DNA from: a phage
Assembly (NCBI GenBank): GCA_008273105.1
Contig: GCA_008273105.1_4080.1
Direction: 5' to 3' (one strand)
DNA length: 64,000 nt
The notes below the pieces were generated by a model that had not been told where the DNA came from, did no database searches, and saw only the letters and a list, made by a program, of their open reading frames with translations. Made by a program: the position numbers and the translations under genes. Shown here in pieces: positions 24,269 through 38,812 of the stretch (position 1 is the stretch's first letter; the number at the start of each line of letters is the position of its first letter).

Positions 24269-24517
24269 AGGGACTCCCTTGAAAATAATATCAATCATAT
24301 TTTATACGATTCATATAAAAAGTCAATAACATTTTATTCGTAATACCCCTTTATCGAAGTCGCTAAGGTTACCCGCCCTTTAGCCCCCTACGCATTTTGC
24401 CATAGTCCAATCCCTTTTATTTCAAAAAAGTCAAGGGATTACCTATGCATTTTTTTAACGCATAATTTTAAAAACGCCTTGACTTTTTTCTGAATCAGTA
24501 CTAGATCCCTTTACGCA

Positions 24518-24727
24518 TTAATCCTTCGTTACGCTAACGATTATCTGTGTATCCCCGTAGTCCTGCCATACTTCCACGCCATCGGTCGCCCTGGTTAGTC
24601 GTGCTGTCATCTGCTTAATGGTCTTAGGCTTTAGTGGAACCTGTTGCAGTACTGTACGCATAGCATCATTGACGTTATCATGTACGCCTGCAATAGTACC
24701 TAGAACGCTGTATACTGTATAGAACAT
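24518..24727 (-). CDS. hypothetical early protein
   Basis: ORF 69 aa; AGGAGGG SD 7 nt upstream of ATG. Confidence 0.55.
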   Translation of the reverse strand: MFYTVYSVLGTIAGVHDNVNDAMRTVLQQVPLKPKTIKQMTARLTRATDGVEVWQDYGDTQIIVSVTKD

Positions 24728-24795
24728 ATGTATGCCCTCCTGATATAGTTAAGGCCGCTACAAGGCGGCCTATGATGTTTGGTGATGTGTAACGC

Positions 24796-25197
24796 TTACA
24801 GTCCTAAGATAGTGCGTGCTTCGTTACGTTCCGTACACAGCTGCATGATGTGAGCAAGTAAGTCCTTGCTAATGTATCCGGTGTTCATAGCTTCACGAAT
24901 AGATACATCATAAGCACCGAACCCCGTGCGAACGATACGCACATCATTCAGGTTAGTATTATAGATACCGCCGAGATCAACGGCTTCGAATACTACATCA
25001 ACAGAATATTCATTGTTGCCATCGTGGAAGTTTTCCAGTGCAATAGTATTGGATACCGCCCAACGTTTGCAGTTTCCAATGATGCGGCACTGTTCCGGTT
25101 GGATAGTACCATTACTTACAGCGTACTCCAGTGCATCTTTACCGAAAGTCCGAGCCAGTACTAAAACGTCAGCGAAGGAATTGATTGAGAAGGTCAT
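24796..25197 (-). CDS. hypothetical early protein
   Basis: Start set at MTFSINSF after AAGGAG; six-frame N-terminal extension MVLPPKLRSFI is the translated 5'-UTR hairpin. Confidence 0.55.
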   Translation of the reverse strand: MTFSINSFADVLVLARTFGKDALEYAVSNGTIQPEQCRIIGNCKRWAVSNTIALENFHDGNNEYSVDVVFEAVDLGGIYNTNLNDVRIVRTGFGAYDVSIREAMNTGYISKDLLAHIMQLCTERNEARTILGL

Positions 25198-25250
25198 GAT
25201 AAAACTCCTTAATTTAGGAGGGAGAACCATTTCCCCCTCTCTATGTAAAA

Positions 25251-25278
25251 CATTATACTTGATTCTAAGTACTATGCA
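25251..25278 (-). promoter_or_regulatory. sigma70-type early promoter (TTGCAT-N16-TATAAT)
   Basis: Minus strand: aaaaagtac TTGCAT ... TATAAT gttttacat, followed by GC hairpin and SD. Confidence 0.6.
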
Positions 25279-25286
25279 AGTACTTT

Positions 25287-25619
25287 TTACATTTTAATAC
25301 CTGGATTCAGGTAGCGGTGAGATCCATATTCTGGATCGGTTTCGGTCCAGTACTGTAAATCGATAGTACCTTTCGCGTTAATCTTGTCTACCAGCTTATT
25401 CATCTTAGTGTATACTACGTCAGCATCGATGCGTTTAAAGCCAGTAGCTTTAGTGAAGTAGTAGTGATTTGCTTCACTATCATTAAGGATATACCGAGCA
25501 CCGTTTGCAGTCTGTGCGATAATGATTGAGTATTCTACTTCCCGATCCAGACCGTCGATGAATACAGATGAAACATTGGTACGGATGAAAGCTTTAACGA
25601 TAGCGATTGAAGTACTCAT
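25287..25619 (-). CDS. hypothetical early protein
   Basis: ORF 110 aa; AGGAG SD; TTGACA-N17 promoter upstream. Confidence 0.55.
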   Translation of the reverse strand: MSTSIAIVKAFIRTNVSSVFIDGLDREVEYSIIIAQTANGARYILNDSEANHYYFTKATGFKRIDADVVYTKMNKLVDKINAKGTIDLQYWTETDPEYGSHRYLNPGIKM

Positions 25620-25825
25620 TTTGAATCTCCTAACTTTGTGGGCCGTCGCACCATTGCCGCCCTACGAGATACATTATTGCAGTACTGATATACTTTGTCA
25701 ATACTTTTTTTATTAATAGTTTTCACTTCACCAGCAGATAGTTACTCACCGTTATTAACTATATATTTTGGATACACTTATGCACCCTGTGGGCTAGTTT
25801 TTGTCTATGCGTATATAATAGCAAA

Positions 25826-25858
25826 GGAACTGACCGGAGTCAATCCCTTTTTTATTCT
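25826..25858 (-). terminator. intrinsic terminator hairpin (in repeated intergenic module)
   Basis: ggaactgaccggagtcaatccc hairpin with flanking A/T runs immediately downstream of gene 25861..26118; overlaps a TTGACT -35-like hexamer. Confidence 0.45.
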
Positions 25859-25860
25859 TT

Positions 25861-26118
25861 TTATGAAATATCTTCGATGTAGTCGGCCCATTTCATTTTT
25901 TCAGTACTGTCAATGGCTACCGGATTATTTGGATCAAACCATTCACCATTCCCGCAATACATACCCACGGCAACGGTTTTATAGCCATCCTGTGCAGTAC
26001 TCCACGACATAGCACGATAGATATGGCCTTTAACTGGTTGCAGTACTGGTAATGTTTTATGGTCTTCTACGTAGGCCATAGCTTGAGGATTTACCCGATA
26101 TTGTGTGAACTGTTCCAT
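25861..26118 (-). CDS. hypothetical early protein
   Basis: ORF 85 aa; AGGGGA SD. Confidence 0.55.
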   Translation of the reverse strand: MEQFTQYRVNPQAMAYVEDHKTLPVLQPVKGHIYRAMSWSTAQDGYKTVAVGMYCGNGEWFDPNNPVAIDSTEKMKWADYIEDIS

Positions 26119-26194
26119 TATGTTTCCCCTTGTAGTTAGTAAAGTTATTACATCAGTACTATCAAGCTATGTCAATAGTACTGAAATAAAACTT

Positions 26195-26419
26195 TTAGAT
26201 TAGATTATTGATGCCGTTGATGGTAGACTCGCTTTCTTCTTTCTCCCATTGGCGGTAGTACTTCCATGCTTCATGATATGTGGCGATTAGTTCATCTTTT
26301 TGATCCTGAGTACATGCCAGTACTGAATCACGATGAGCGGTGTTATAGATAGAATCGAATGATTTCTTCTCTTCTGCCAGGTTAGCTACTTCCCGCATTA
26401 GTTCATCAAAGTTAGCCAT
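26195..26419 (-). CDS. hypothetical early protein
   Basis: ORF 74 aa (MANFDEL...); AAGGAG SD; 5'-UTR hairpin gggggaggatatctccccc. Confidence 0.6.
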   Translation of the reverse strand: MANFDELMREVANLAEEKKSFDSIYNTAHRDSVLACTQDQKDELIATYHEAWKYYRQWEKEESESTINGINNLI

Positions 26420-26466
26420 TTTATTACTCCTTTTAGTGGGGGAGGATATCTCCCCCTATGCAAAAC

Positions 26467-26494
26467 ATTATACTTTGTTTTAGTTATTATGCAA
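26467..26494 (-). promoter_or_regulatory. sigma70-type early promoter (TTGCAT-N16-TATAAT)
   Basis: Minus strand TTGCAT aataactaaaacaaag TATAAT, then UTR hairpin 26438-26456. Confidence 0.6.
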
Positions 26495-26750
26495 GTACTT
26501 TTTTCATATAAAGATTATATTCTACACCGCCGTAACCTTCTACGATGATATGTTTTGCGTTATCACGTTTGCACATAGTGAAACCGTTGTTGATGTGTTC
26601 TGCATTTTCCAGGGCGACATCACCGATAGCGGCACATACGGCACTAATAACAGTATTCCGCAAAGTACTGGTATCATTAGCGGTCATAGTAGTTTGCAGT
26701 ACTACGTTGTCGTATACGTGTGCATTGATAGTGATTTCGATAGTGTTCAT
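26487..26750 (-). CDS. hypothetical early protein
   Basis: ORF 87 aa; AGGAG SD. Confidence 0.55.
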   Translation of the reverse strand: MNTIEITINAHVYDNVVLQTTMTANDTSTLRNTVISAVCAAIGDVALENAEHINNGFTMCKRDNAKHIIVEGYGGVEYNLYMKKVLA

Positions 26751-26836
26751 GGTGTATCTCCTGGACTGGCGGGAGAACTATTCCCCCGCTCTATGTAAAA
26801 CATTATACGTTAATCTAACTACAATGCAAGTACTTT

Positions 26837-27028
26837 TTAAATTTTATTTCCGATATAGTCCGGTCTATTCTTTTCGGTCATACGCTTTGCTAATGTTTGC
26901 ATATGGCTTATTGCGTTTAATGTGTCTTCCTCCAGGGATGAATCAACATAATCAGGATCATTCTTCACCTTGCAATGATTATGATAGCGTAGTACTGCCA
27001 GTACTTTTTTAACTTCTTCTACTGTCAT
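26837..27028 (-). CDS. hypothetical early protein
   Basis: ORF 63 aa; ATGA overlap with upstream gene (coupled). Confidence 0.5.
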   Translation of the reverse strand: MTVEEVKKVLAVLRYHNHCKVKNDPDYVDSSLEEDTLNAISHMQTLAKRMTEKNRPDYIGNKI

Positions 27029-27297
27029 AATAAGTACCCCACTTCGTTAGCTTTCAGGTTAGTATCAATCATCAGTGGATTTTTGTAGTTCACAAAACGA
27101 TTAGTTTTCTCGATAGCGAATCCCATATAATCCAGCTTACTAACAGTACATTCATTCTTAAAAACTTCTTTCGCTGCATCGATGGCTGATTGCATGGATA
27201 ACCGACCATCTAAATTAATGTTTCCAAATGATCCACCAGCAGAAGTAGGATTACCGTTCATATCTTTAATGATCATAGTAGCGGAGTAGCTGGACAT
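27025..27297 (-). CDS. hypothetical early protein
   Basis: ORF 90 aa; AGGAA SD; hairpin ggggagaactattctcccc in 5' UTR. Confidence 0.55.
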   Translation of the reverse strand: MSSYSATMIIKDMNGNPTSAGGSFGNINLDGRLSMQSAIDAAKEVFKNECTVSKLDYMGFAIEKTNRFVNYKNPLMIDTNLKANEVGYLL

Positions 27298-27381
27298 AAT
27301 TTTGTTTCCTTTTAGTATCGGGGAGAACTATTCTCCCCTTGATGTAAACTATTATACAGTACTGATATACTTTGTCAATAC

Positions 27382-27603
27382 TTAATTACGTTTAAAATGA
27401 TATGTGCCTTTATCATCCTGTACGCCCCATACTGATTTACCATCAACACCAGTGAAACCGGATTGTAATTCAATATGGAAACCATTATTATCAACTACAA
27501 AAACTTTTTTATTTTCATCCCGATAACATTGATATTCTGAATCAACATTAAAGGCCGCATCATTCAGAAGATTGGAAGCGTAAATGCAAGTCATTGTAGT
27601 CAT
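27382..27603 (-). CDS. hypothetical early protein
   Basis: Start set at MTTMTCIY after AAGGAA; upstream extension is translated UTR hairpin. Confidence 0.5.
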   Translation of the reverse strand: MTTMTCIYASNLLNDAAFNVDSEYQCYRDENKKVFVVDNNGFHIELQSGFTGVDGKSVWGVQDDKGTYHFKRN

Positions 27604-27657
27604 GATTTTATTCCTTATTCTTTGAGGGAGAACCATTTCCCCCTCTCGATATAAAAC

Positions 27658-27685
27658 ATTATACTTGATTCTAAGTACAATGCAA
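27658..27685 (-). promoter_or_regulatory. sigma70-type early promoter (TTGCAT-N16-TATAAT)
   Basis: Minus strand TTGCAT tgtacttagaatcaag TATAAT. Confidence 0.6.
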
Positions 27686-27779
27686 GTACTTTTTAAAAAA
27701 TAGTTTTCAGTACTGAATACTTATATAATAGATACATTTATGCACCCTGTGGGTCAGTGAGCTATCTCTCAATGAATAT

Positions 27780-27828
27780 ATAATAGCAAAGGGACTGACC
27801 GAAGTCAATCCCTTTTTTAATCTTTTTT
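27780..27828 (-). terminator. terminator hairpin overlapping a promoter-like TTGACT-N17-TATTAT element
   Basis: gggactgaccgaagtcaatccc hairpin with A/T flanks just downstream of kinase-like gene; same module at 25.8, 30.7 and 34.4 kb. Confidence 0.45.
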
Positions 27829-28411
27829 ATCGTGTTATAGTTACGGCTTTTACATCCCGCTTTTTATAGTACTGATTCCAGATATTGCGGGTTAAACCGT
27901 AATCAAGTACTTTAATAAGGCCGTTGCGATCCTGGCCGATATTCTGTTTTCTGATATCTCTTATCGTTAGTGTTGACAGTGTATCATCAACGTGTTGTAG
28001 TGCATCAGCAAAGCGGTGCTGGCGTTCAATTGCATTACGTTTAATATTGTACTTTAATTCGTTGCACGCGTTAACGTGCTTTACACTGCCTTTGCTTGCA
28101 GTACTCAACCGATCCATAACGATAAACATATTATCAGGATCGCTTAAATGCATATGCACTTTAGCAAAGTACTGTTTCAATTGAGGGCGGTCATAGTCTA
28201 AAAAATTCCATACCTTACATTCAGTTTCATTTTGTTCTACACCCGCATCACAATTGGCGACCTTAATCACTAACCGATCATTTAAAGCGAAAACTATACG
28301 GGAAGAACCTGCACCGATGATCTCCAAGCCAGCTAACCGACAAGCTGAAAGGATCTCTTTGTTGGTTTCCATTTCTGACAGTGTACGGATGAATTTAGTA
28401 TAATTACGCAT
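27827..28411 (-). CDS. protein kinase-like protein (truncated ePK-like fold)
   Basis: Gly-rich loop IGAGSSRIVF, VIK lysine, catalytic-loop-like IRDIRKQNIG, DYG (DFG-like) with typical spacing; start set at MRNYTKF after AAGGAGA. Confidence 0.6.
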   Translation of the reverse strand: MRNYTKFIRTLSEMETNKEILSACRLAGLEIIGAGSSRIVFALNDRLVIKVANCDAGVEQNETECKVWNFLDYDRPQLKQYFAKVHMHLSDPDNMFIVMDRLSTASKGSVKHVNACNELKYNIKRNAIERQHRFADALQHVDDTLSTLTIRDIRKQNIGQDRNGLIKVLDYGLTRNIWNQYYKKRDVKAVTITR

Positions 28412-28442
28412 TGCATGTTCTCCTTGAGTTAATGAAACTATA

Positions 28443-28685
28443 TTACAGTACTTTACTATCAATGGCAACTACTTTTTTAACATTAACGGCGTGGATCACT
28501 TCCTTCGTGTTTTTAGTACTGAATACTTTTGCCGTACCTTGTTCGACCGCAATACGATAGCGACCGTTAACGTCCACCATGTTGATAAAGTCCGGGGTAC
28601 TGAATGGAGTTACCCGGCATTTAAGAACGGTTAACAGTTCCACCAGCGTTGTAGTCTCTTTGATACGTTTTTCTAAAGTAATCAT
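28443..28685 (-). CDS. hypothetical early protein (paralog of 28743..28961)
   Basis: Start set at MITLEKRIK downstream of TTGACA-N17-TACTAT; six-frame extension MTVLKCFS is translated promoter. Confidence 0.5.
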   Translation of the reverse strand: MITLEKRIKETTTLVELLTVLKCRVTPFSTPDFINMVDVNGRYRIAVEQGTAKVFSTKNTKEVIHAVNVKKVVAIDSKVL

Positions 28686-28742
28686 TTTGTTTTCCCCGTG
28701 TTGGTATGCGTACATAGTACTAAAACATTTGAGTACTGTCAA

Positions 28743-28961
28743 TTAGATAATAGAATATTTCTTTAGTGATAATGCGTCTTCTGTCGGTTGATATTCTACA
28801 CCGTTCCCGTTATCTACCTTAGTGAGTAAACCTTTATCAATGAGTTTTTTGATGGTACGGTTTCCCTGTTGAAAACTGGTGAAGTGTGAATCATTACGAA
28901 AGGTATAACCGTGCTTCACTGCTTCATCAATAGTTTTCTTTTCGATTTTAGATAATTTCAT
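28743..28961 (-). CDS. hypothetical early protein, possible HTH DNA-binding
   Basis: Start set at MKLSKIEKK downstream of TTGACA-N17-TATTAT; HTH assignment is a guess from sequence appearance. Confidence 0.45.
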   Translation of the reverse strand: MKLSKIEKKTIDEAVKHGYTFRNDSHFTSFQQGNRTIKKLIDKGLLTKVDNGNGVEYQPTEDALSLKKYSII

Positions 28962-29017
28962 TTTGTTTCTCTCTCTGTGTTGGTATAGATACATAATACT
29001 AAAACATTTGAGTACTG

Positions 29018-29272
29018 TCAACGTGATATTAGTTTTATTTTTTTATTGTATTGTTGGTGTTCATATAGATTAATTTTTCCAGTACTCTCGATCACTATTC
29101 TATTGTTAGTGTCTACGTCGATTACACGTAGTTTCCCGTTGCTTAACTTCCTAGGCAATAGACTACCATTAATAAACTCATTAGCAAGCTGTACGGCCTT
29201 TGAGATGATTCTCTGTGGGGCTTTATAGTGTACCCGTAATACATTATCGTTTGATAGTTGAACCTTAATCAT
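29018..29272 (-). CDS. hypothetical early protein
   Basis: ORF 84 aa. Confidence 0.5.
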   Translation of the reverse strand: MIKVQLSNDNVLRVHYKAPQRIISKAVQLANEFINGSLLPRKLSNGKLRVIDVDTNNRIVIESTGKINLYEHQQYNKKIKLISR

Positions 29273-29285
29273 TTTGTTTATCCTA

Positions 29286-29311
29286 TAAAAAAGGCGGGAA
29301 CAGTTCCCGCC
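29286..29311 (-). terminator. intrinsic terminator
   Basis: Hairpin ggcgggaacagttcccgcc followed on minus strand by TTTTTTAT, just downstream of 29335..29730. Confidence 0.6.
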
Positions 29312-29334
29312 GTGTTGTTAGTACTGCAATGTTA

Positions 29335-29730
29335 TTAGATAACCTGGCGGCGTTTACTGTATACTGTTACACGGTTTCCTTTACGGTCATGACGGATCTC
29401 TTTCTGGTTACGAATCAGTTCACTTGGACGCTTAAGGTTTGCCAGGTGATCCGCGTGAGTCCATGCATTTGCGTTAACTGTAACTTCAATATCAGAACCT
29501 TCCAAGAAGTCATCTTGAGCGTTCAGTACTTCAGCCAGTTCTTGAGCTTTCTTCAGTTCTGCTTCAGTAAGTACAGGCTCAGGTGAATTCACAATATCAG
29601 AGATCTCTTTGAACTGTACCGCCCAGCGTTGTCCTTTCGGTGCATCTTTGCCCATGTCTTTAAATGTTTCACCTTCTTCACGAGCAACGATGCGAGCTTG
29701 TTCACGGGTAGCGAAGAATTTAGTAATCAT
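29335..29730 (-). CDS. hypothetical early protein (paralog of 41617..41880)
   Basis: Shares KFFATREQARI, TFKDMG, RWAV, DRKGNRVTVY with 41617 gene. Confidence 0.55.
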   Translation of the reverse strand: MITKFFATREQARIVAREEGETFKDMGKDAPKGQRWAVQFKEISDIVNSPEPVLTEAELKKAQELAEVLNAQDDFLEGSDIEVTVNANAWTHADHLANLKRPSELIRNQKEIRHDRKGNRVTVYSKRRQVI

Positions 29731-29829
29731 GGTGTACATCCTATTAGTTAAGTTAATTAGTACTACAAGTTAGAGTCTATTATAAAGTACTATCTGGGCA
29801 ATGTCAAATAGTACTTTAAATGGATTCTA

Positions 29830-30153
29830 TTACATGTCTTTCTTACGTTTTACATCGTAGTAACGAACTGTAATTTCTTTGTTGATCTCTTCCTCGATGC
29901 GGTGAATAACTTTTTCTTTCGGGTTGAAACCTATTACAGTTTCTTTAATGATCTCCAAGCCCGTGTATTCGCCTTGTGTACCGTAACCGTAAGTAAAGGT
30001 TTCATGTCCCAGGTCTTCCCAGCGGTCACCAATCAATGCAGACACGTAGCATGAGTGGTAAGTATTGCCGTGGCTATCAGTCCACCGATTAACTTTAATG
30101 TCAAAGGAAGTTACAATTTTCATTTCTACTTTCTGGGTAAGGATCATAGCCAT
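29830..30153 (-). CDS. hypothetical early protein (paralog of 35992..36315)
   Basis: Shares RWTDSxGNTYHSC, FTYGY and C-terminal VKRKKD. Confidence 0.55.
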   Translation of the reverse strand: MAMILTQKVEMKIVTSFDIKVNRWTDSHGNTYHSCYVSALIGDRWEDLGHETFTYGYGTQGEYTGLEIIKETVIGFNPKEKVIHRIEEEINKEITVRYYDVKRKKDM

Positions 30154-30242
30154 TTTAATTTCTCTCTTTGTTAGGTGGGGAACTATTCCCCACTTGATGT
30201 AAAATATTATACAGTACTAAAAACTATTGTCAAACTATTTTA

Positions 30243-30443
30243 TCAAATTGTTTCCCATTTCATGTTACCCGCTTTACGCTGTGAAACAGGAATAAACATG
30301 TTATTAATGTTACTAATATAACCGACCTGTAAGTCACGCTGTGAACCATACGCCCGACTTGCTGCATTTTTAGCACCGCGTTCTGATTTATAAACGCCGC
30401 TGGATACTGTAAAGCCTACTACACCGAAAGTAAAATGTTTCAT
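30243..30443 (-). CDS. hypothetical early protein
   Basis: ORF 66 aa; TTGACA-N16-TATAAT and AGAGGAA SD upstream; long duplicated leader further upstream. Confidence 0.55.
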   Translation of the reverse strand: MKHFTFGVVGFTVSSGVYKSERGAKNAASRAYGSQRDLQVGYISNINNMFIPVSQRKAGNMKWETI

Positions 30444-30493
30444 TTTGTATTCCTCTTTGTGGTTGATGTAAGTATTATACTCGTTTAATTTCT

Positions 30494-30600
30494 ATTGTCA
30501 AACTATTTTATCAGGGGAGGTTTTCGTATGTCTTACTCCTGGACTACTTAACGGGGAGTTACTTGTTTCGTTCCCCGTCCTGATGTAAAACATTATACGC
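30494..30600 (-). repeat. about 107-bp structured leader repeat (copy 1)
   Basis: Near-identical to 40926-41035; contains hairpin acggggag...ctccccgt and the early promoter -10 region. Confidence 0.7.
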
Positions 30601-30766
30601 TTATCGTGATACTTTGCAAGTACTTTTTAAAAATAGTTTTCAGTACTATCAAATACTAGCCGCCAGCATATAATAGATACATTTATGCACCCTGTGGGCT
30701 GATTTGTTTCTATGCGTATATAATAGCAAAGGGACTGACCGGAGTCAATCCCTTTTTTAATTCTTT

Positions 30767-30916
30767 TTAAACTTGTTTTGGGTTGCGATATGTGATAGCG
30801 TTCGGGTACATTTGTTTAATGTTATTCCATGCCTGGTTAACATTGTAACCACTTGAGCGAATCAGTTGGTTACTACCGACACCTTGAAACACTACTTCGA
30901 ATAAGAATTCTTTCAT
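30767..30916 (-). CDS. hypothetical small protein (49 aa, below ORF-track cutoff)
   Basis: Manual translation MKEFLFEVVFQGVGSNQLIR...; AGGTGA SD; ATGA overlap with upstream gene. Confidence 0.4.
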   Translation of the reverse strand: MKEFLFEVVFQGVGSNQLIRSSGYNVNQAWNNIKQMYPNAITYRNPKQV

Positions 30917-31086
30917 GCTTTCACCTCGCGATCTGCTTTACCTTTACGCCACGACATTACTAATTGTTCGCGTTGCCATAAGTCGAGTGATACAAAAAGT
31001 TTTGCGGTATCACTTTTAGGATACTCGCCATTAGTACCTAACCGATAAAACAGATCTTTCAGTACTGATAATTCTACTTGAATCAT
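30913..31086 (-). CDS. hypothetical small protein (57 aa, below ORF-track cutoff)
   Basis: Manual translation MIQVELSVLKDLFYRLGTNGEYPK...; AGGAG SD; ATGA overlaps both ends. Confidence 0.45.
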   Translation of the reverse strand: MIQVELSVLKDLFYRLGTNGEYPKSDTAKLFVSLDLWQREQLVMSWRKGKADREVKA

Positions 31087-31175
31087 TTTATTACTCCTGA
31101 TTGCGTTAATACTTCTACTATTGCATGAATGATCATAAGTACAGCTAAAACAATAATCATCGGATTCATTTGCAT
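31083..31175 (-). CDS. hypothetical small hydrophobic peptide (30 aa)
   Basis: MQMNPMIIVLAVLMIIHAIVEVLTQSGVIK; AAGGAG SD 8 nt upstream; first gene of a 3-gene mini-operon. Confidence 0.35.
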   Translation of the reverse strand: MQMNPMIIVLAVLMIIHAIVEVLTQSGVIK

Positions 31176-31192
31176 AAGCTGTACTCCTTATA

Positions 31193-31405
31193 TTAATCTT
31201 TCAGCCAATGATCTTGAATGAATTTTTCACAGAATCCCTGTTTCATGGATTCTAACAGGCGTTCGCGGTGAGCGGCGGCATATTGCTCAGTACTATGCGT
31301 TACGCCAGGCTGATAACGTGATACCCCATCCGGTCCGATGTATTGTACATCCCACGGTTTTTCGTTAGTATCAGACCATTTACGAACGATTAGTTGACCT
31401 TGCAT
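31193..31405 (-). CDS. hypothetical early protein
   Basis: ORF 70 aa; AGGAAA SD; UTR hairpin. Confidence 0.55.
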   Translation of the reverse strand: MQGQLIVRKWSDTNEKPWDVQYIGPDGVSRYQPGVTHSTEQYAAAHRERLLESMKQGFCEKFIQDHWLKD

Positions 31406-31489
31406 TTTTCTTTCCTCTTAGTGGGGAGAATCATTTCTCCCCTTCATGTAACTTATTATACAGTACTATAATCTATTGTCAAATACTTT

Positions 31490-31678
31490 TTAAAGTTTAT
31501 GAATCAATTCTTTATCTAAGCGATAGCGTACATTATTAATGGTAACAGCATTATTTTTAATGCTACGCTGTACAGGTCCACCAGCAATAACAAACGTTGC
31601 TTTATTACCCCGAACAATGATAGCACTTCCAGGATTACCGAAATCATCTTGTACTAAAATACTTGATAAGTTTTCCAT
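31490..31678 (-). CDS. hypothetical early protein
   Basis: ORF 62 aa; AGGAAA SD; UTR hairpin aggggaagatgtttcccct. Confidence 0.55.
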   Translation of the reverse strand: MENLSSILVQDDFGNPGSAIIVRGNKATFVIAGGPVQRSIKNNAVTINNVRYRLDKELIHKL

Positions 31679-31756
31679 TTTTATTTCCTCTTAGTAGGGG
31701 AAGATGTTTCCCCTTGATGTAAGTACTATAACAGTACTTAAAACTAAATGCAAGTA

Positions 31757-32113
31757 CTATGATAAAATCATGATAGGATATTCACTATCGATCAGTACCT
31801 CGAATCCGAACCCTTCGTACCATTCTTTAAGATTAAAGGCGTTATCTTCTCCCGTATCGCATTCTAAGATGATACAATCTGAATCATCGGCGGCATCGAT
31901 AAAGGCATTCATTAATTCGTTACCTTCACCATTGCCCCGACTATCAGGATCAACATAAAGAGAATCAATAAACGCTACACGGTCATAATCAAGATCCGGT
32001 GCAATGATTCCACGTTTAACAAACCAGTACTGCAACTGTGCTACTTTGCCCTGTACTTGATAGCCAGTGATCTCGCCATTGTCAGTAGTACGCGTGATAT
32101 GTTGTATTCCCAT
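31757..32113 (-). CDS. GNAT-like acetyltransferase (tentative)
   Basis: VAFIDSLYVDPDSRGNGEGNELMNAF resembles GNAT motif A (R-x-x-G-x-G); short for a GNAT. Confidence 0.35.
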   Translation of the reverse strand: MGIQHITRTTDNGEITGYQVQGKVAQLQYWFVKRGIIAPDLDYDRVAFIDSLYVDPDSRGNGEGNELMNAFIDAADDSDCIILECDTGEDNAFNLKEWYEGFGFEVLIDSEYPIMILS

Positions 32114-32142
32114 GATTTCAATCCTCAGTTAAGATATAAAAT

Positions 32143-32170
32143 ATTATACACTATCTTTCAGTACTGTCAA
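32143..32170 (-). promoter_or_regulatory. sigma70-type promoter (TTGACA-N16-TATAAT)
   Basis: Minus strand TTGACA gtactgaaagatagtg TATAAT upstream of 31757 gene. Confidence 0.6.
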
Positions 32171-32176
32171 TACTTT

Positions 32177-32434
32177 TTATCTCATAGATCTATGCCAACA
32201 ATTACGCGGATCTCTTTTAAAAGTACTATCATGATCCTCCTGGCAAGTAATACAATACATGCACCCTATAACGGCCTGGCGTCGATTCTCAGGGATTTTA
32301 TCGCCGCAGTCGAGGCAATGTACTAGTGATTCTCTTTGTGCGTTAATTTGCTTTCTAGCGTGGTTAACGGCGGCCTGAATCACTGCGTTAATCTCGTCTT
32401 GTTCGGCCCCGTCTTTCGCGAATCCTACAGCCAT
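32177..32434 (-). CDS. traR: TraR/DksA-family C4 zinc-finger protein
   Basis: CLDCGDKIPENRRQAVIGCMYCITCQ matches the TraR/DksA zinc-finger pattern C-x2-C-G-x2-I-P-x2-R ... C-x2-C-Q. Confidence 0.65.
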   Translation of the reverse strand: MAVGFAKDGAEQDEINAVIQAAVNHARKQINAQRESLVHCLDCGDKIPENRRQAVIGCMYCITCQEDHDSTFKRDPRNCWHRSMR

Positions 32435-32763
32435 TATTTTAACCTCATTATAAAAATACTATAGTACTGTAATGCTACAATAATACTACTAGTGCTAATC
32501 TTATTCAAACCACATGATACTACATATCCACCAGCATTACCACGGATAGTAACGCCTTTGTACTGTCTATATAAATTCAACTGCGTATATTGCCTTTGAT
32601 CAAGAATTGATCAGAATTATACGCCTTATGCTAAATTGATCCAGTACTTTTTTGATCATTTATTGATCGATATTATATAGTTACATTTGTGCACCCTATG
32701 GGTTAGTGACGTTCTCGTCTTGATGTAAGTATTATGCCAGTACTGGAGGATATTGTCAATAGA

Positions 32764-32961
32764 TTATTTTAATTTTTTTCTGTCATTGATTAATGCTTTC
32801 AGTACTATACTAATGATTTGCAATGATTCATCAATGACTATAAAATTATTCTCTTTCATTAGATGATAGTTACCATTGATTGTATATTCTAAGGAGTACT
32901 GTTTACGTTTAATTTTTGATAATGTTTCTATTTGTTTTTGTACTGATTTCATGCTAATCAT
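32764..32961 (-). CDS. hypothetical early protein
   Basis: ORF 65 aa. Confidence 0.5.
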   Translation of the reverse strand: MISMKSVQKQIETLSKIKRKQYSLEYTINGNYHLMKENNFIVIDESLQIISIVLKALINDRKKLK

Positions 32962-33066
32962 TGTTAAACGTCCTGTAACGCATTCTAACGAGATAAACGG
33001 TTTAGTACTGACATTGTATAGGGTAATGAATTAAAGCCCACCAGCGTTAACTAGTGGGCTATAATC

Positions 33067-33210
33067 TTACATCTTGCGGATAATCTTAACAGTATCTTTC
33101 ACCGATTTACCGTCTTGCTGGCATTGCTCGATCATTGCGTATTGTTCTGCGGTCAGATCCTCGCCAGTTTTTGCCAGTACTGCGTCGATGAATGAATCCA
33201 GTGCGATCAT
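33067..33210 (-). CDS. hypothetical small protein (47 aa, below ORF-track cutoff)
   Basis: Manual translation MIALDSFIDAVLAKTGEDLTAEQYAMIEQCQQDGK...; hairpin downstream. Confidence 0.4.
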   Translation of the reverse strand: MIALDSFIDAVLAKTGEDLTAEQYAMIEQCQQDGKSVKDTVKIIRKM

Positions 33211-33309
33211 TTTGTTTCTCTCTTAGGTTAAGTTAACTACTGTTGATAAAACTTATTATACAGTACTATCAAACTATGTCAATAACTTTAATAGTACTGG
33301 TAATATATT

Positions 33310-33489
33310 TTAGCGGTAGTCGTCGTATGCTTTATTCACCTGGCGAATGTAACTTTCAAAGGCTTCGTCTACCGTTTCATACTCCCGAACATAATCACCA
33401 TAGGAAACCACATACATACCTTTTTGATCTTCAAACGACATGATGATAGAATCCAGGCCGATGATTTCAGTTTTTGCGATGATAGCCAT
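33310..33489 (-). CDS. hypothetical small protein (59 aa, below ORF-track cutoff)
   Basis: MAIIAKTEIIGLDSIIMSFEDQKG...; preceded by TTGACA-N17-CATAAT and AAGGA SD. Confidence 0.5.
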   Translation of the reverse strand: MAIIAKTEIIGLDSIIMSFEDQKGMYVVSYGDYVREYETVDEAFESYIRQVNKAYDDYR

Positions 33490-33523
33490 TTTTAATTCCT
33501 TAGTAGTGTAGTTGATAAAAGTT

Positions 33524-33552
33524 ATTATGTCAGTACTATCAAACTATGTCAA
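33524..33552 (-). promoter_or_regulatory. sigma70-type promoter (TTGACA-N17-CATAAT)
   Basis: Minus strand TTGACA tagtttgatagtactga CATAAT; AGTACTG sits just upstream of the -10, as in several other promoters. Confidence 0.55.
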
Positions 33553-33571
33553 TAGTACTGTGATAATATTT

Positions 33572-33784
33572 TTAGTTAATGATAGTCAGTGTAAAATTGT
33601 AATCCCCTGCCTGGTATAGTACTTTGTCGCCGAACGTTCCAACACGTTTCATATTGCAATAGATACCCATAACACTTTTTACATCTTTGATATTCCGAAC
33701 GCCAGTAATATCCTTGTTGAAAGTATCATGATCAGAAAATAAAACTTGTTTTGCATTTTTCAGTACAGTGCGGATATTAGCCAT
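33572..33784 (-). CDS. hypothetical early protein
   Basis: ORF 70 aa; UTR hairpin ggggagaactattctcccc upstream. Confidence 0.55.
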   Translation of the reverse strand: MANIRTVLKNAKQVLFSDHDTFNKDITGVRNIKDVKSVMGIYCNMKRVGTFGDKVLYQAGDYNFTLTIIN

Positions 33785-33876
33785 TTTGTTTTTTCTCTGT
33801 TAGTGGGGAGAACTATTCTCCCCTTGATGTAAACTATTATACAGTACTATAATCTATTGTCAAACTATTTTTTATA

Positions 33877-34218
33877 TTATTCGAAATCTTCCGGTACTGA
33901 CTGATAATCATCTTCACCATAAGCACTTTCTAACCGCTCACCAGTGTAATCATCAGTTAGTGAGTCATCCTCATAGTTCACGTCTACGCCAGTGATGTAA
34001 AACTGGCTATCGTCTGGATCATTGAAATTAATTTTTTGGATGTTTACAATAACTGTATTGATGCCCAGGACACCGCCATCAGCCGTTACAAAGTACTGAT
34101 AGTTTTCACAACCGCCTGAATTGAAACCGTAATTAATTTCGGCCCGACCATCATTTAAACGCAGTACCTGGGCGATGATTTCATTTTCAAAGTTAGATTG
34201 AGCAATTGAGATAGTCAT
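33877..34218 (-). CDS. hypothetical early protein, acidic C-terminus
   Basis: ORF 113 aa. Confidence 0.55.
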   Translation of the reverse strand: MTISIAQSNFENEIIAQVLRLNDGRAEINYGFNSGGCENYQYFVTADGGVLGINTVIVNIQKINFNDPDDSQFYITGVDVNYEDDSLTDDYTGERLESAYGEDDYQSVPEDFE

Positions 34219-34428
34219 GATTCGTTTCCTTATTACCAGGGGAAACCGTTTCCCCTTGCGATGTAAAACATTATACGCTTATTGAGATAGTTTGCAAGTA
34301 CTTTTTAAAAATAGTTTTCAGTACTCAAACATTATACAATAGATACACTCCTGCACCCTGTGGGCTAGTGAGCTATCTCTCAATGAATATATAATAGCAA
34401 AATGGCTGACCGAAGTCAACCACTTTTT

Positions 34429-34566
34429 TCATTTATTTTTAGCTTTTAGAATCGCCGCCTTTCGCGTCATGCCTTGCTTGATGTACTCCTTTACTTTCGC
34501 TTTTTTAGCGTTTACCTTGTCTGCTTTCGTTTTAGGAGTACTGTAAATTATACTGTTAGGATTCAT
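34429..34566 (-). CDS. hypothetical small basic protein (45 aa)
   Basis: MNPNSIIYSTPKTKADKVNAKKAKVKEYIKQGMTRKAAILKAKNK; Lys-rich; GGTGA SD; abuts upstream gene stop. Confidence 0.4.
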   Translation of the reverse strand: MNPNSIIYSTPKTKADKVNAKKAKVKEYIKQGMTRKAAILKAKNK

Positions 34567-34656
34567 TTAAATCACCATAAAGAATAGATAGGTTACTAAC
34601 AACGCCGCGATCAATGCACCGACCAGGGCCGAACTGTAATAAGCTAATGATTTCAT
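34567..34656 (-). CDS. hypothetical small hydrophobic peptide (29 aa)
   Basis: MKSLAYYSSALVGALIAALLVTYLFFMVI; ATGA overlap with upstream gene. Confidence 0.3.
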   Translation of the reverse strand: MKSLAYYSSALVGALIAALLVTYLFFMVI

Positions 34657-34805
34657 TTTTTAGCCTGAAAATAATGTTTAATTTGAGCGGCGGTCAGTGC
34701 ACAATTACGCAGGAAGTTTTCTGTATAACTGCGTCGAGTACTGAAAGAAAATTGACCTTTGCCGTTACCGATAGTAACATCAAACCGAGCATTATATTGT
34801 TTCAT
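34656..34805 (-). CDS. hypothetical small protein (49 aa)
   Basis: MKQYNARFDVTIGNGKGQFSF...; AGGAG SD; UTR hairpin ggggagaaccatttccccc. Confidence 0.5.
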
Positions 34806-34886
34806 TTTGATTCTCCTTGTATCAGGGGAGAACCATTTCCCCCTCTATGTAAACAATTATACAGTACTAAAAACTAATTGCAAGTA

Positions 34887-35033
34887 TTATTTTTTAGATT
34901 TACGCAAACTTTCTACCATCTCAGGAGTAAGGCCCGGTGGGTAGGAAACCACTTCATCAACGAAACGTAAAGGGAATACCCCAGCGAAAGGTGAACATGC
35001 TTTCTTAGTATTACTCTTTTTTGATGCTTTCAT
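34887..35033 (-). CDS. hypothetical small protein (48 aa)
   Basis: MKASKKSNTKKACSPFAGVFPLRFVDEVV...; AAGGAA SD; UTR hairpin. Confidence 0.45.
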   Translation of the reverse strand: MKASKKSNTKKACSPFAGVFPLRFVDEVVSYPPGLTPEMVESLRKSKK

Positions 35034-35102
35034 TTCATATTCCTTAATTAGTGGGGAGAATCATTTCTCCCCTTCATGTAAAACATTATACAGTACTGAA
35101 AA

Positions 35103-35312
35103 CTAATTGCAAGTACTATTTGAAAGTAAATGCTCATACGCTGCATTAACTACATTTTCAATAACCGACTGTACAGAAAGATCCCCCACGTCCTGGCTAT
35201 AGTAGAAATTGCTTACAGTGGTGTCATCGTATGCAAATACTTTACCAGGTACTGCATCAATCACATACATATTAACCTTTAAGATGTCGATCTTATCCTG
35301 TACAGTAAGCAT
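35103..35312 (-). CDS. hypothetical early protein
   Basis: ORF 69 aa. Confidence 0.5.
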   Translation of the reverse strand: MLTVQDKIDILKVNMYVIDAVPGKVFAYDDTTVSNFYYSQDVGDLSVQSVIENVVNAAYEHLLSNSTCN

Positions 35313-35317
35313 ATTAA

Positions 35318-35590
35318 TTAACCTTTTAAGTACTGGCTTAAGTAGTCTTTTTGATCTTCGGTGATTGCAGTCATCTTCCCTAGTACTGGATTAATGATAT
35401 AATCCCCTGTAACGTCCTGTAACGCATTCTCAGGCGGTGAAACGGCTGGGGTAGCCATAGCCATTGCCTGGACTTGTTCGACGCTGTAACGCTCATAAAG
35501 GCGGCATTCTTCCGGTGTTAACATAGCATCAGTACGCTTCATCGGTTTAATGATGCTTTCGATCTCATTCAGTACTTGATTAACGTTCAT
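35318..35590 (-). CDS. hypothetical early protein
   Basis: ORF 90 aa. Confidence 0.5.
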   Translation of the reverse strand: MNVNQVLNEIESIIKPMKRTDAMLTPEECRLYERYSVEQVQAMAMATPAVSPPENALQDVTGDYIINPVLGKMTAITEDQKDYLSQYLKG

Positions 35591-35641
35591 GGTATAATCC
35601 CCAATATAAGCGGCCTAAATCGACCGCTAACGATGTTTTGA

Positions 35642-35911
35642 TTAATAGGTGTAAGGTTGACGCTCAAACAATGATTGTACGCTGTACGCCCCGCTAATGG
35701 GCTTCGCTGGCAAATCAATTTTATATTGTTCACGCTTAAAGATAATAAAACGGCAATTGTTTTTAACATCAAAATTGATTGAACGTTCCAGGAGTTTTCC
35801 ATCGTGCACAAATACAAGATAACCGCTTGGTACTTGTTTTGTAGAACTGGTTGCAACCATAGACCGACGAACATGTGTACCTGCATCGATTAAAGTACTG
35901 ATATTTTTCAT
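35642..35911 (-). CDS. hypothetical early protein
   Basis: ORF 89 aa with AGAGGA SD; preferred over overlapping low-complexity frame 35587..35886. Confidence 0.5.
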   Translation of the reverse strand: MKNISTLIDAGTHVRRSMVATSSTKQVPSGYLVFVHDGKLLERSINFDVKNNCRFIIFKREQYKIDLPAKPISGAYSVQSLFERQPYTY

Positions 35912-35991
35912 TTTACTATCCTCTTAAGTTGATTTAATTTCTTTCCCCTATGCAGACACTGTATCAAAGTATCTGCATAAAGTAAAGCTAA

Positions 35992-36315
35992 TTAAAGATC
36001 TTTTTTACGTTTTACATCCTGTACAGTACAATGCAACGGGATAGACAAATCATTACACAAACGAGTAAGGGAGGTTTCAACAGTATCAAGCCCGTCTACT
36101 GATTCCTTTAAGAGATCAAACGCCGTTTGTTGATATGCATCTTCATAGCCATAAGTAAATGATTCAACCGCCAGATCATTCAAACCGTTATCCAGTTCAA
36201 CGCTTACATGACAAGAATGATAAGTATTGCCATATGAATCAGTCCAACGTTTACCGTCAACATTGATTGCATGGATTGCAGCCAGGGAAACGGTGTTGAT
36301 GATAGTTTTAGCCAT
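35992..36315 (-). CDS. hypothetical early protein (paralog of 29830..30153)
   Basis: Shares RWTDSYGNTYHSC, FTYGY, VKRKKD; AAGGAA SD. Confidence 0.55.
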   Translation of the reverse strand: MAKTIINTVSLAAIHAINVDGKRWTDSYGNTYHSCHVSVELDNGLNDLAVESFTYGYEDAYQQTAFDLLKESVDGLDTVETSLTRLCNDLSIPLHCTVQDVKRKKDL

Positions 36316-36406
36316 TTTAGTATTCCTTAAATTAATATGTGTCGTCTTGATAAAATCTATTATGCCAGTACTATCAAACTATGTCAATAGTACTGTGATA
36401 ATATTT

Positions 36407-36619
36407 TTACTTACTTTCTTTCGCTGCTTTATATGTTGCCACTGCCATAACCACATCAGCACGAACAAAGTTTTTAACCGTGTCACTGTAATAATTGATC
36501 GCATCATCTATATCTGCGAACGTCCGATACATACCGCACCAAGATACTTTATAACCTTCTTTCACTTCTGCCAGTTTAACGATAGTCTTGTTAACTTTGA
36601 TTTTAGTAATGATAGCCAT
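36407..36619 (-). CDS. hypothetical early protein
   Basis: ORF 70 aa; AGGAAA SD; UTR hairpin. Confidence 0.55.
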   Translation of the reverse strand: MAIITKIKVNKTIVKLAEVKEGYKVSWCGMYRTFADIDDAINYYSDTVKNFVRADVVMAVATYKAAKESK

Positions 36620-36705
36620 TTTAGTTTCCTTGTAGTGGGGAGAATCATTTCTCCCCTTGATGTAATGTATTATACTTTATTCGATTTACTTTGCAAGTAC
36701 TTTTT

Positions 36706-36933
36706 TTAATTTAATTCATCCAGGCAAAGGATACGCTCAACGCCCAAATCAGTTAAACTAATCGACGGCACTTGATAGGTTTCAATGTATGCTACACTTG
36801 CCCACTGACCGAACTCATTAACGGCCCAGGTATTCATTGCATTTTGCAATTCCGCACCTGCCTTGTTAGTAATGACTGCAACTACTTGTTCGTTGCCAGT
36901 AGTACCAGATACGCGAGTAATGATAATAGCCAT
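36706..36933 (-). CDS. hypothetical early protein
   Basis: Start set at MAIIITRV after AAGGAA; six-frame extension MFYIERG is the translated -10 region. Confidence 0.5.
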   Translation of the reverse strand: MAIIITRVSGTTGNEQVVAVITNKAGAELQNAMNTWAVNEFGQWASVAYIETYQVPSISLTDLGVERILCLDELN

Positions 36934-37170
36934 TGTTTTGATTCCTTTGATTTGGAAGGAGAACCGTTTCCCCCTCTCGATGTAAAACATTATACGCTAA
37001 TCTCTTAATCGTGCAAGTACTTTTTATTACTTTTTGCAAAATACTTTAAACGCTCTCAATCGCATTCTAACGACCTTAACGCCACCAGCTAGGGCGATGT
37101 ATCAGATAATCAGTTTAATGCGTTAGAATCGATTCTAGGCGGTGCTGGTGGACTGGAATACTACAGACAC

Positions 37171-37197
37171 AAAAAAGCCCACTGTTTAAGGTGGGCT
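37171..37197 (-). terminator. intrinsic terminator
   Basis: Hairpin agcccacc ttaaacag tgggct followed on minus strand by TTTTTT; identical copy at 37906-37932. Confidence 0.65.
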
Positions 37198-37218
37198 AGT
37201 GATTCAGTACTTTAATTG

Positions 37219-37701
37219 TTATGCTTCAACTTTGCGATGAGCTTCGATCCATTCCTCGCGAGTCATACCGCTTTCTTTGATAGCGTCCAGTACTACCGCA
37301 ATGCAGTTACCGCGTACAGGAATCATATGTTCTTCCCCGTTATCAAGTACTACAGTAACACGTTCTTGAATCCATTTTTTAGGTTTAGATTCTGGCTTAT
37401 CTTCACCATACTTAACCGCCAGGGCTTTATGTGCCATTTCTACAACTACTTCCAGATCCAATCCAGCCACCGCCGCCTGGATACTTTCGATTGTTGCTTG
37501 CAGTTCGGCTTCACGGGCTTTTTTCTGTTCTTCCAGTTCTGCTACCTTTTTGGCTTGCAGTTCTTTAGCTTCACTGTACGCAATGTTAAAATTGTTGCGT
37601 ACTGCTTTCATGGTATCGTTATCCAGGTCAGCCAACAATTCAGCAGCAATAACAGTATCGTTTGAAATCAGTGCTTTCAGGAATGATTTTACATTAGCCA
37701 T
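37219..37701 (-). CDS. H-NS-like nucleoid-associated protein (tentative)
   Basis: Helical charged N-terminal region (AKELQAKKVAELEEQKKAREAELQ); C-terminus VVLDNGEEH...PVRGNC...AIKESGMTREEWI loosely resembles, from memory, the H-NS C-terminal DNA-binding region; start at MANVKSF after GAGGA. Confidence 0.35.
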   Translation of the reverse strand: MANVKSFLKALISNDTVIAAELLADLDNDTMKAVRNNFNIAYSEAKELQAKKVAELEEQKKAREAELQATIESIQAAVAGLDLEVVVEMAHKALAVKYGEDKPESKPKKWIQERVTVVLDNGEEHMIPVRGNCIAVVLDAIKESGMTREEWIEAHRKVEA

Positions 37702-37905
37702 TTTATAAATCCTCAATTAAAGTTTAGTTTACGTTTATTAGTGTATCAAAGTTTTATCGACGTGTCCAGTTTTTCGTTCGACTTACTGGCGGTCTACTTA
37801 GTGCTCCCCGTCTTGATGTAATACATTCTACGCCTTTTTGTGGTAATGTCAACTACTATTTTAAAACTATTTTTAAAGTATGCAGTACTACGATAATACA
37901 AAAAC

Positions 37906-37932
37906 AAAAAAGCCCACTGTTTAAGGTGGGCT
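37906..37932 (-). terminator. intrinsic terminator (second copy)
   Basis: Same hairpin agcccacc...tgggct + T-run downstream of 37950..38249. Confidence 0.65.
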
Positions 37933-37949
37933 AGTGATTCAGTACTATA

Positions 37950-38249: not shown

Positions 38250-38333
38250 TTGATTATCCTTAGTTACCAGGGGGAACCGCTCCCCCGTGCGATGTAAAAT
38301 ATTGTACAGTACTAAAAACTAATTGCAAGTACT

Positions 38334-38570: not shown

Positions 38571-38679
38571 TTTCTTATTCCTTAGTTACCAGGGGGAACC
38601 GCTCCCCCTATGCAAAACATTATACGCGTTTAAAAACTAATAGCAAGTATTTTAATAAAAAGTATTTGAAAAATAATTG

Positions 38680-38806: not shown

Positions 38807-38812
38807 TATGTA

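Follow-up and report, generated by a model that had tools for sequence, protein, structure and literature searches.

A 64,000-nucleotide stretch of phage DNA (contig GCA_008273105.1_4080.1 of NCBI GenBank assembly GCA_008273105.1; here called the window) carries on its minus strand a gene for a small protein of the family phrog_4301, which we assign to a divergent branch of the kinase superfamily. Profile matches, invariant alignment columns, and a confident AlphaFold2 model make this fold assignment secure, and the protein is very likely an active kinase-fold phosphotransferase. The fuller reading, which we favor on balance, describes a minimal, constitutively active, immediate-early kinase that acts on host proteins, for takeover of the cell or against its defenses. 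Protein substrates and the takeover or anti-defense role are the weaker steps of this reading and lean on analogy. The gene and the codons of its kinase motifs lie at the following positions.

27827..28411, minus strand: coding sequence of the 194-amino-acid minimal kinase-like protein, 22.5 kDa, pI 9.4 (list of open reading frames [ORFs] and translation)
28298..28315, minus strand: codons of the Gly-rich loop, G33-A-G35-S-S-R38 (G35, S36, and R38 invariant in 93 sequences)
28220..28264, minus strand: codons from K50, the beta3 Lys of VIK, to the start of helix C, with A52, G57, Q60, N61, and E64 (invariant alignment columns)
27941..27958, minus strand: catalytic-loop codons, D152-I-R-K-Q-N157, D-x4-N (alignment to HRD...N of MKK4, MKK7, and 4eqm_A)
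27896..27904, minus strand: D170-Y-G172 codons, equivalent of the Mg-binding DFG (alignment to DFG of MKK4/7)

Kinase motifs of the 194-amino-acid protein

A first-pass annotation, made from the sequence of the window alone, had placed a small protein with kinase signature motifs at 27827-28411. These coordinates are exact; the strand, which it left unstated, is minus, with the ATG at 28411-28409 and a TAA stop codon at 27829-27827. All of the motifs it named are present and in the order it gave, i.e., IGAGSSRIVF (residues 32 to 41), VIK (with K50), IRDIRKQNIG (150 to 159), and DYG (170 to 172). The chain does end soon after the DYG triplet, but after 22 residues rather than the estimated 25 or so.

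Searched as a single sequence, the protein matched Pfam Pkinase (PF00069) with an E value of 0.0013 over profile positions 26 to 152 of 263; a Pkinase match at an E value of ≤0.01 was found for only 5 of 50 family members. A single-sequence search of PDB sequences returned weak matches, nearly all of them to protein kinases, and only weak generic kinase matches were obtained from the PADLOC and NCBIfam libraries. With family profiles searched against solved structures, MKK4 was matched at an E value of 1.6e-4 (profile of 14 sequences), and the best match reached 4.6e-5 (profile of 50 sequences), in both cases with the catalytic loop and DFG in register. Every one of the 60 PDB matches listed for the broader profile is a Ser/Thr or Tyr protein kinase, and the profile matches share a D-I-K/R-x-x-N-I ... 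I-K-x-x-D-F/Y-G-L pattern.

An alignment of 93 sequences, extending down to 17% identity, has invariant columns at G35, S36, R38, K50, A52, G57, Q60, N61, E64, D152, and G159, and D170 and G172 are kept in at least 90% of it. The loop signature of the family reads GxGSSR, with the invariant Arg (R38) at the position of the third Gly of canonical kinases, and the His of HRD is absent, the ORF reading IRD. The Asn of D-x4-N (N157) is a feature of the window ORF's own subfamily and is not kept outside it. A further set of 119 viral homologues was found with a DNA pattern that excludes the sites of E64, D152, G159, D170, G172, and Y182; in this set E64 is kept in 115, D152 in 110, G159, D170, and G172 in 114 each, and Y182 in 104. 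The Pkinase match, the profile matches to solved kinases, the invariant catalytic columns, and the conservation at sites outside the search pattern confirm, at the level of sequence, that the kinase motifs are more than chance.

Predicted fold and putative chemistry

The AlphaFold2 model built with the 93-sequence alignment has a predicted local distance difference test score (pLDDT) of 93.5 and a predicted template modeling score (pTM) of 0.89; it superseded a poor model from a 14-sequence alignment (pLDDT of 62, with the C-terminal half under 50). Along the chain, the model places two N-terminal helices, strands at residues 30-34, 38-42, and 47-52, helix C at 55-70, and a strand at 96-100, followed by helices at 109-120 and 130-145, the catalytic loop, two short strands, DYG, and a short helix at 175-182, after which the chain ends. 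The Gly-rich loop sits between strands 30-34 and 38-42, K50 lies on strand 47-52, and E64 lies on helix C.

The prediction shows an N-terminal extension, a normal N-lobe (beta1-3, helix C, and beta5), and the front half of a C-lobe (helices D and E). The modeled protein consists of kinase subdomains I-VII only, without activation segment, P+1 loop, or helices F-I; subdomains VIII-XI (APE activation segment and helices F to I) are absent, and about 100 positions of the Pkinase profile (153-263) are missing. By structure comparison, the fold is that of a bilobal kinase. The first-pass annotation had expected a truncated kinase-like fold lacking most of the C-lobe, and this is borne out by the profile searches, the AlphaFold2 model, and the fold comparison. 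It had also named structure prediction as a check, in which a non-kinase fold would speak against the idea; the predicted fold is kinase-like.

From kinase chemistry, ATP would be bound under the GxGSSR loop and positioned by the predicted K50-E64 pair, Mg2+ would be held by N157 and D170, and D152 would serve as the catalytic base. Since the activation loop is absent, the enzyme would presumably be constitutively on, and since the peptide-binding groove is absent, it may be either promiscuous or directed to its target via R38, Q60, N61, and Y182.

The phrog_4301 family

The protein matches phrog_4301 (annotated as function unknown) with an E value of 4e-42 over residues 3-188, corresponding to profile positions 13-185 of 225, and it is the only match of this family type within the window. 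An exhaustive profile search returned 2,068 cluster representatives at an E value of ≤0.001 and 243 at ≤1e-10 (clusters counted at 50% identity), most of them 180 to 300 amino acids long. The first-pass description of the protein as unusually small holds in a relative sense only: the kinase core is short, but lengths of about 150 to 300 amino acids are usual across the family, and cores that end after subdomain VII are known from NleH1/2 and the T7 gp0.7 kinase (T7K). A degenerate DNA pattern derived from the N-lobe motifs recovered at least 120 loci on viral contigs, all confirmed with hidden Markov models, and distant viral homologues match phrog_4301 too. Among the 120 homologues listed, only one (AceK) has a precomputed Pfam domain.

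The window protein is 100% identical to XMR00950.1 of phage Turkey3 and 92 to 99.5% identical to its Asteriusvirus orthologues, with CMSTMSU as an outlier at 76%; orthologous 585-nucleotide coding sequences are annotated across many Asteriusvirus records. Proteins of the same length with 26 to 41% identity occur in Rak2-like phages of Klebsiella, Salmonella, Erwinia, Xanthomonas, Cronobacter, and Yersinia. Rak2-like jumbo phages with phrog_4301 orthologues include RaK2, K64-1, Muenster, Munch, CBB, GAP32, 121Q, PBECO4, G17, and Sharanji (gp063).

Several orthologues already carry a kinase annotation: serine/threonine-protein kinase in Turkey3, Turkey5, and fEgEco12, protein kinase domain-containing protein in ph0011 and PBECO4 (UniProt L7TKF0), and putative protein kinase or protein kinase in Munch, SE_PL, fENko-Kae01, Muenster, and K64-1. 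The GenBank note of Muenster gives an HHpred probability of 99.9% to a kinase chain. In the literature, the protein is mentioned in one paper (PMC11895373); the Sharanji paper refers to WNN14351.1, the orthologue in that phage, with the words "another protein kinase, which function is unknown." The kinase call is thus public in GenBank records, UniProt, and one paper and is not new. New are the family-wide views, namely, the placement in tail modules and in a tape-measure protein and a 150-amino-acid chromosomal clade in Clostridia.

Location and expected timing of expression

The 3 kb around the kinase gene are 92 to 96% identical to Asteriusvirus jumbo coliphages (phAPEC6, 121Q, G17, and Sharanji), and we assign the window to an Asteriusvirus jumbo coliphage with Escherichia coli as host. 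The annotated direct terminal repeat of vB_Ec-M-J (21.5 kb, positions 1-21525) maps by blastn to about 24.4 to 44.4 kb of the window, a region that includes the kinase gene, and the orthologues of Muenster and fENko-Kae01 likewise lie within annotated terminal repeats. Terminal repeats were verified experimentally for fEgEco12 (PMC13070987) and CBB (PMC5259590). Features of this region and of the kinase transcription unit are as follows.

24367..44384, no strand: equivalent of the ~20-kb direct terminal repeat of related phages, with ~50 small co-directional genes and the kinase gene inside (blastn; boundaries approximate)
28714..28742, minus strand: sigma-70-like promoter TTGACA-17-TACTAT, 10 of 12 matches (promoter scan)
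28443..28685, minus strand: 80-amino-acid ORF upstream of the kinase gene (ORF list; a 243-nucleotide coding sequence is annotated in relatives)
28420..28425, minus strand: ribosome-binding site AAGGAG, 8 nucleotides 5' of the ATG of the kinase-like ORF (sequence reading)
27778..27815, minus strand: composite element, a 12-bp terminator-like hairpin overlapping the promoter-like TTGACT-17-TATTAT of the next gene (terminator and promoter scans)

Perfect TTGACA-N16-18-TATAAT sites occur 11 times in the window (762-44019), compared with 0.21 expected, and all of them are on the strand of the kinase gene; 10 of the 11 fall within the terminal-repeat equivalent (27351-44019). In the related phage CBB, RpoD-like promoter regions have been proposed as marks of early genes (PMC5259590). 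The 80-amino-acid ORF, for which the PHROG scan gave no match, ends 31 nucleotides before the start of the kinase gene, and the terminator scan found no terminator-like site between the two; they are probably co-transcribed, likely from the promoter at 28714-28742. The composite element begins 12 nucleotides past the kinase stop codon. The terminal-repeat location, the perfect sigma-70 promoters, and the ribosome-binding site, promoter, and hairpin that flank the two-gene unit are evidence, although not proof, that host RNA polymerase transcribes the unit as an immediate-early one. The published virion proteome table of phAPEC6 does not list the orthologue, gp500c.

In a PHROG scan of ten neighboring window proteins, eight matched only function-unknown PHROGs and two matched none. 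The possibility that the kinase is split and that a downstream gene supplies the missing C-lobe was considered and rejected: the next gene encodes a function-unknown protein of 73 to 84 amino acids and lies past the hairpin and the overlapping promoter-like site. Just beyond this gene, a perfect sigma-70 site is found at 27351-27378.

The 38-nucleotide composite element, AAAGGGATTGACTYCGGTCAGTYCCTTTGCTATTATAT, is present in three copies in the window (25813-25850, 27778-27815, and 30718-30755, all on the minus strand), with none expected. Its role may be that of a stop-and-restart signal placed between early genes. Most of the 11 perfect sigma-70 promoters have AGTACTG directly before the -10 box. 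Repeated N-terminal pseudo-peptides in the ORF list (MTVLKCFS... and MVLPPKLR...) arise from the conserved promoter and leader sequences.

In relatives, the early genes annotated within the terminal repeats include those for a PaiA-type acetyltransferase and a DksA-like zinc-finger protein; Muenster also has one for a YafQ-like toxin. These annotated early genes lie as follows.

Turkey3 13996-14352
vB_Ec-M-J 12349-13026
Muenster 16393-16641

Such neighbors fit a host-takeover gene set. One physical genome end would map near 44384; given the terminal-repeat equivalent at 24367-44384, the window appears to come from a circularized or permuted assembly. Outside the repeat equivalent, 12 divergent paralogues stand in tandem at 49551-63626 on the plus strand, eleven of 375 to 433 amino acids that are mutually 24 to 30% identical and one of 245 amino acids that matches the others weakly. 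In the Sharanji block matching this array, one gene is annotated as an RCC1-repeat protein, and the virion-associated ~40-kDa "DNA condensation protein" set of phAPEC6 (gp003-010, gp549, and gp551) may be the same family.

Genome contexts of the family

In 30 of the 120 viral loci listed, the kinase homologue occupies a fixed slot in a tail or baseplate module. Half of these (15 loci, such as L023, L027, L043, and L077) have the order gp25-like wedge, kinase, Baseplate_J, and the other 15 (such as L061, L067, and L082) have an adaptor-like gene, a gene of no assigned function, one to three kinase copies, a second such gene, and the sheath gene. This placement suggests that the homologues are virion associated or injected in those phages. 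A SNF2 helicase adjoins the kinase homologue in 14 of the listed loci.

The tape-measure protein P0129 (3,248 amino acids; PhageMin_Tail at 125-315) contains two tandem kinase domains, at 665-830 and 855-1033, with intact catalytic residues. Other metagenomic proteins (P0021, P0023, P0030, and P0032) are made up of three to five tandem copies of the domain. Both P0129 and these multi-copy proteins could be gene-call fusions. In P0131 (2130 amino acids), several kinase domains are combined with a GNAT-like region, a 2H phosphoesterase, and a CCA-adding-type nucleotidyltransferase. This giant multidomain protein is reminiscent of the "polyvalent proteins" that are delivered together with phage DNA, and ART-PolyVal domains are found among the neighbors of viral homologues.

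When bacterial and archaeal genomes were scanned, 83 loci (L136-L218) were recovered, mostly on Clostridium and Ruminiclostridium chromosomes, of which the following are examples.

Ruminiclostridium: L137, L170, and L210
Clostridium: L148, L162, and L193

The Clostridia homologues have 150 to 168 amino acids and lie among housekeeping genes, such as pdxR-pdxS-pdxT (31 loci) and uppS; an obvious prophage context was not seen at these chromosomal loci. The family is therefore not exclusive to phages.

Some distant homologues have RNA-repair genes as neighbors, i.e., AAA_33/tRNA_lig_CPD with Rnl1, or KTI12/AAA_33 and RtcB. A general link to RNA repair was not upheld: it comprises three suggestive contexts or fusions, and an unbiased Pfam tally of 148 neighbor families of the viral homologues revealed no dominant function. 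The commonest neighbor of the distant homologues (cluster c1, 180 to 266 amino acids) has no Pfam or PHROG match and was rejected as a hidden kinase paralogue (hhalign E value of 0.46).

Alternative readings

Several observations weigh against an active early kinase that modifies host proteins. The single-sequence Pkinase score of 18.6 bits is below the gathering threshold of 31.7 bits, and the larger sister subfamily has no conserved catalytic-loop Asn and reads D-x5-[S/H]-W-G. Foldseek searches against the PDB gave nothing better than an E value of 3.5e-4 or above a template modeling (TM) score of 0.48, and APH, the Ark1 RNA kinase, and MTR kinase match structurally about as well as protein kinases do. 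The model lacks the half of the C-lobe that would bind a peptide, so that its structure does not tell whether the substrate is a protein. The Clostridia clade amid housekeeping genes fits poorly with an exclusively anti-host role, and no experimental data on activity, timing, or substrate were found in the searchable literature for any family member. The Ser/Thr/Tyr fraction of terminal-repeat proteins (0.171) is not significantly lower than that of neighboring genes (0.188; p = 0.12). As a signature of a promiscuous kinase, depletion of these residues is uninformative, and it would be confounded by a second, T7K-like kinase of the kind found in Sharanji, should this phage encode one.

With fold and ATP chemistry unchanged, the acceptor could instead be RNA (the 2'-OH of tRNA, as for Ark1), a nucleotide, or another small molecule (a host signal or an antibiotic-like compound, for example) rather than a protein, a reading that we consider unlikely. 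By sequence the protein is nearest to true protein kinases, as the 60 of 60 listed PDB profile matches show, while APH, MTR kinase, and Lpg2603 are among its Foldseek matches. The model lacks the half of a protein kinase that binds the substrate, yet the minimal cores of NleH/OspG and T7K are protein kinases despite lacking the same parts of the C-lobe. In addition, the protein is basic, and canonical protein kinases have nothing that corresponds to the invariant R38, Q60, and N61; the surroundings GxGSSR and QNxxE might point to an unusual acceptor such as RNA. The homologues next to AAA_33/tRNA_lig_CPD with Rnl1, KTI12/AAA_33, or RtcB and the fusion of a kinase domain with a 2H phosphoesterase and a CCA-adding-type nucleotidyltransferase would agree with this, but they are anecdotal, and no RNA-repair family dominates the 148 neighbor families. 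The Clostridia homologues amid metabolic genes also fit a non-protein acceptor.

The window protein has every residue of the catalytic set (Lys, Glu, catalytic Asp, Asn, and Mg-binding Asp), in canonical motif order and spacing, and the Lys, the Glu, and both Asp are essentially invariant in more than 100 divergent homologues, which would be unexpected for a scaffold. The invariance of these residues makes it very improbable that the protein is a pseudokinase, in the sense of a scaffold or inhibitor that binds ATP or host proteins, or an enzyme of AMPylation or another transfer, even with a non-canonical Gly-rich loop (Arg for the third Gly) and a catalytic-loop Asn that varies across the family. 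Kinase folds with other chemistries are exemplified by SelO and SidJ. A function apart from catalysis has a parallel in NleH, which binds host RPS3 independently of kinase activity (PMC12756638).

The absence of any kinase relation, with chance motifs or a SAICAR-synthetase-like ligase fold, is effectively refuted, in spite of the single-sequence Pfam score below the cut-off, by profile E values down to 4.6e-5 against protein kinases with motifs in register, by motif residues that coincide with the invariant columns of this family of 2,068 clusters, by the HHpred result noted for Muenster, and by the SAICAR synthetase fold being itself related to the kinase fold.

We retain the reading of a minimal, constitutively active kinase directed at host proteins. 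Host RNA polymerase would use the sigma-70 promoter to make a two-gene transcript that ends at the hairpin, from a terminal-repeat region that would be the first DNA to enter the cell. By analogy, host proteins, and possibly also phage proteins, would be phosphorylated in the first minutes, leading to host takeover or to disarmed defenses. Precedent for active minimal cores is provided by NleH1/2 (PMC12756638) and T7K, and, for the family as a whole, a role at the start of infection is supported by the intact copies in a tape-measure protein, the tail and baseplate placement, and the anti-defense precedent of T7K.

More tentatively still, and with doubt on our side, phrog_4301 can be proposed to be a very large, uncharacterized family of minimal kinases deployed at the first moment of infection, forming a second, independent phosphorylation-based system for takeover or anti-defense. 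Deployment would follow two routes, i.e., immediate-early expression from terminal repeats and physical delivery with the DNA via tape-measure domains or baseplate and sheath slots. About 220 T7K homologues have been reported, compared with more than 2,000 phrog_4301-type clusters, two counts that are not directly comparable.

Significance

Phage kinases have been in focus since T7K was shown to disarm bacterial defenses by mass phosphorylation (PMC13645617). The window ORF stands for another family of stripped-down kinases, one that is apparently more widespread than that of T7K. Should the enzyme prove active, it would indicate how small a part of the kinase fold suffices for catalysis, and it could reveal new host targets or anti-defense routes in jumbo phages considered for therapy. 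As public records already annotate the protein as a kinase, the gain from that call is modest; what deserves follow-up is the family-wide size, the placement in tail modules and in a tape-measure protein, and the Clostridial clade.

Comparison with known kinases

Canonical Ser/Thr kinases (MKK4/MKK7, PAK, and MST) are the best sequence matches, with the Gly-rich loop, beta3 Lys, helix C Glu, D-x4-N, and DFG in register, and the HRD...N loop of 4eqm_A, a PDB chain deposited as "Protein kinase," aligns with the D152 loop. Compared with these kinases, the window protein is missing about 100 profile residues, has Arg for the third Gly, and lacks the His of HRD. Ark1 (an archaeal RNA kinase; PDB 7vnx and 8yv5), Rio, and Bud32 are structural matches no closer than ordinary protein kinases, and no sequence-level link of the window protein to them was found. 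Ark1, which acts on RNA, is a further precedent for a small kinase.

OspG is active as a kinase, showing that such minimal cores can work. Its homologues NleH1 and NleH2 are minimal kinase folds without subdomains VIII-XI (PMC12756638) and are truncated at the same point as the window protein, a resemblance rather than a sign of membership. NleH2 (4o96, 163 residues) is a weak, non-specific Foldseek match (E value of 2.1e-3, TM scores of 0.42 and 0.48), no better than generic kinases, and is not among the top sequence-profile matches listed for the 50-sequence profile against the PDB. The NleH effectors are bacterial proteins that act in eukaryotic cells after type III secretion, and they lack the GxGSSR and QNxxE signatures.

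With T7K, a highly active protein kinase with an anti-defense function (PMC13645617), the window protein shares the position of a phage early gene near a genome end, an N-terminal helical extension, and a core that stops shortly past the DFG equivalent without a classical C-lobe. The parallel to T7 gp0.7 drawn in the first-pass annotation stands for the early-gene position, in a promoter-rich terminal-repeat region, but not for any specific kinship. Homology to T7K was rejected, as hhalign gave E values of 0.24 over 29 columns for T7K and 0.18 for gp144 of Sharanji, and the proteins fall into different PHROGs (phrog_2828, phrog_15752, and phrog_18305 for T7K). Structure comparison against BFVD did return T7K-like kinases, at E values of ~1e-5. 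T7K is laid out as N-terminal helices, GNG, VIK, D-x-H-x-x-N, DPV at 213-215, and a non-kinase domain at the C terminus, whereas the window protein has DYG in place of DPV and no counterpart of the C-terminal shut-off/DNA-binding domain. The T7K family is defined by DPV (DP-x) in place of DFG and, in Autographiviridae members, a C-terminal shut-off domain (PMC13645617), neither of which the window protein has.

A true T7K homologue is Sharanji gp144 (BLASTP E value of 4e-8), which reads DIHSSN...ITDPLS, with DP-L for DFG, and has no shut-off domain. The T7K paper (PMC13645617) describes a jumbophage homologue of T7K, and gp144 is probably that protein. Its gene lies outside the window, on the minus strand of OR545507.1 at 66182-66856 (L005:26183-26857), and encodes 224 amino acids. 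Sharanji thus carries both a phrog_4301 kinase and a T7K-like gp144, so that the two kinases can be compared in one system.

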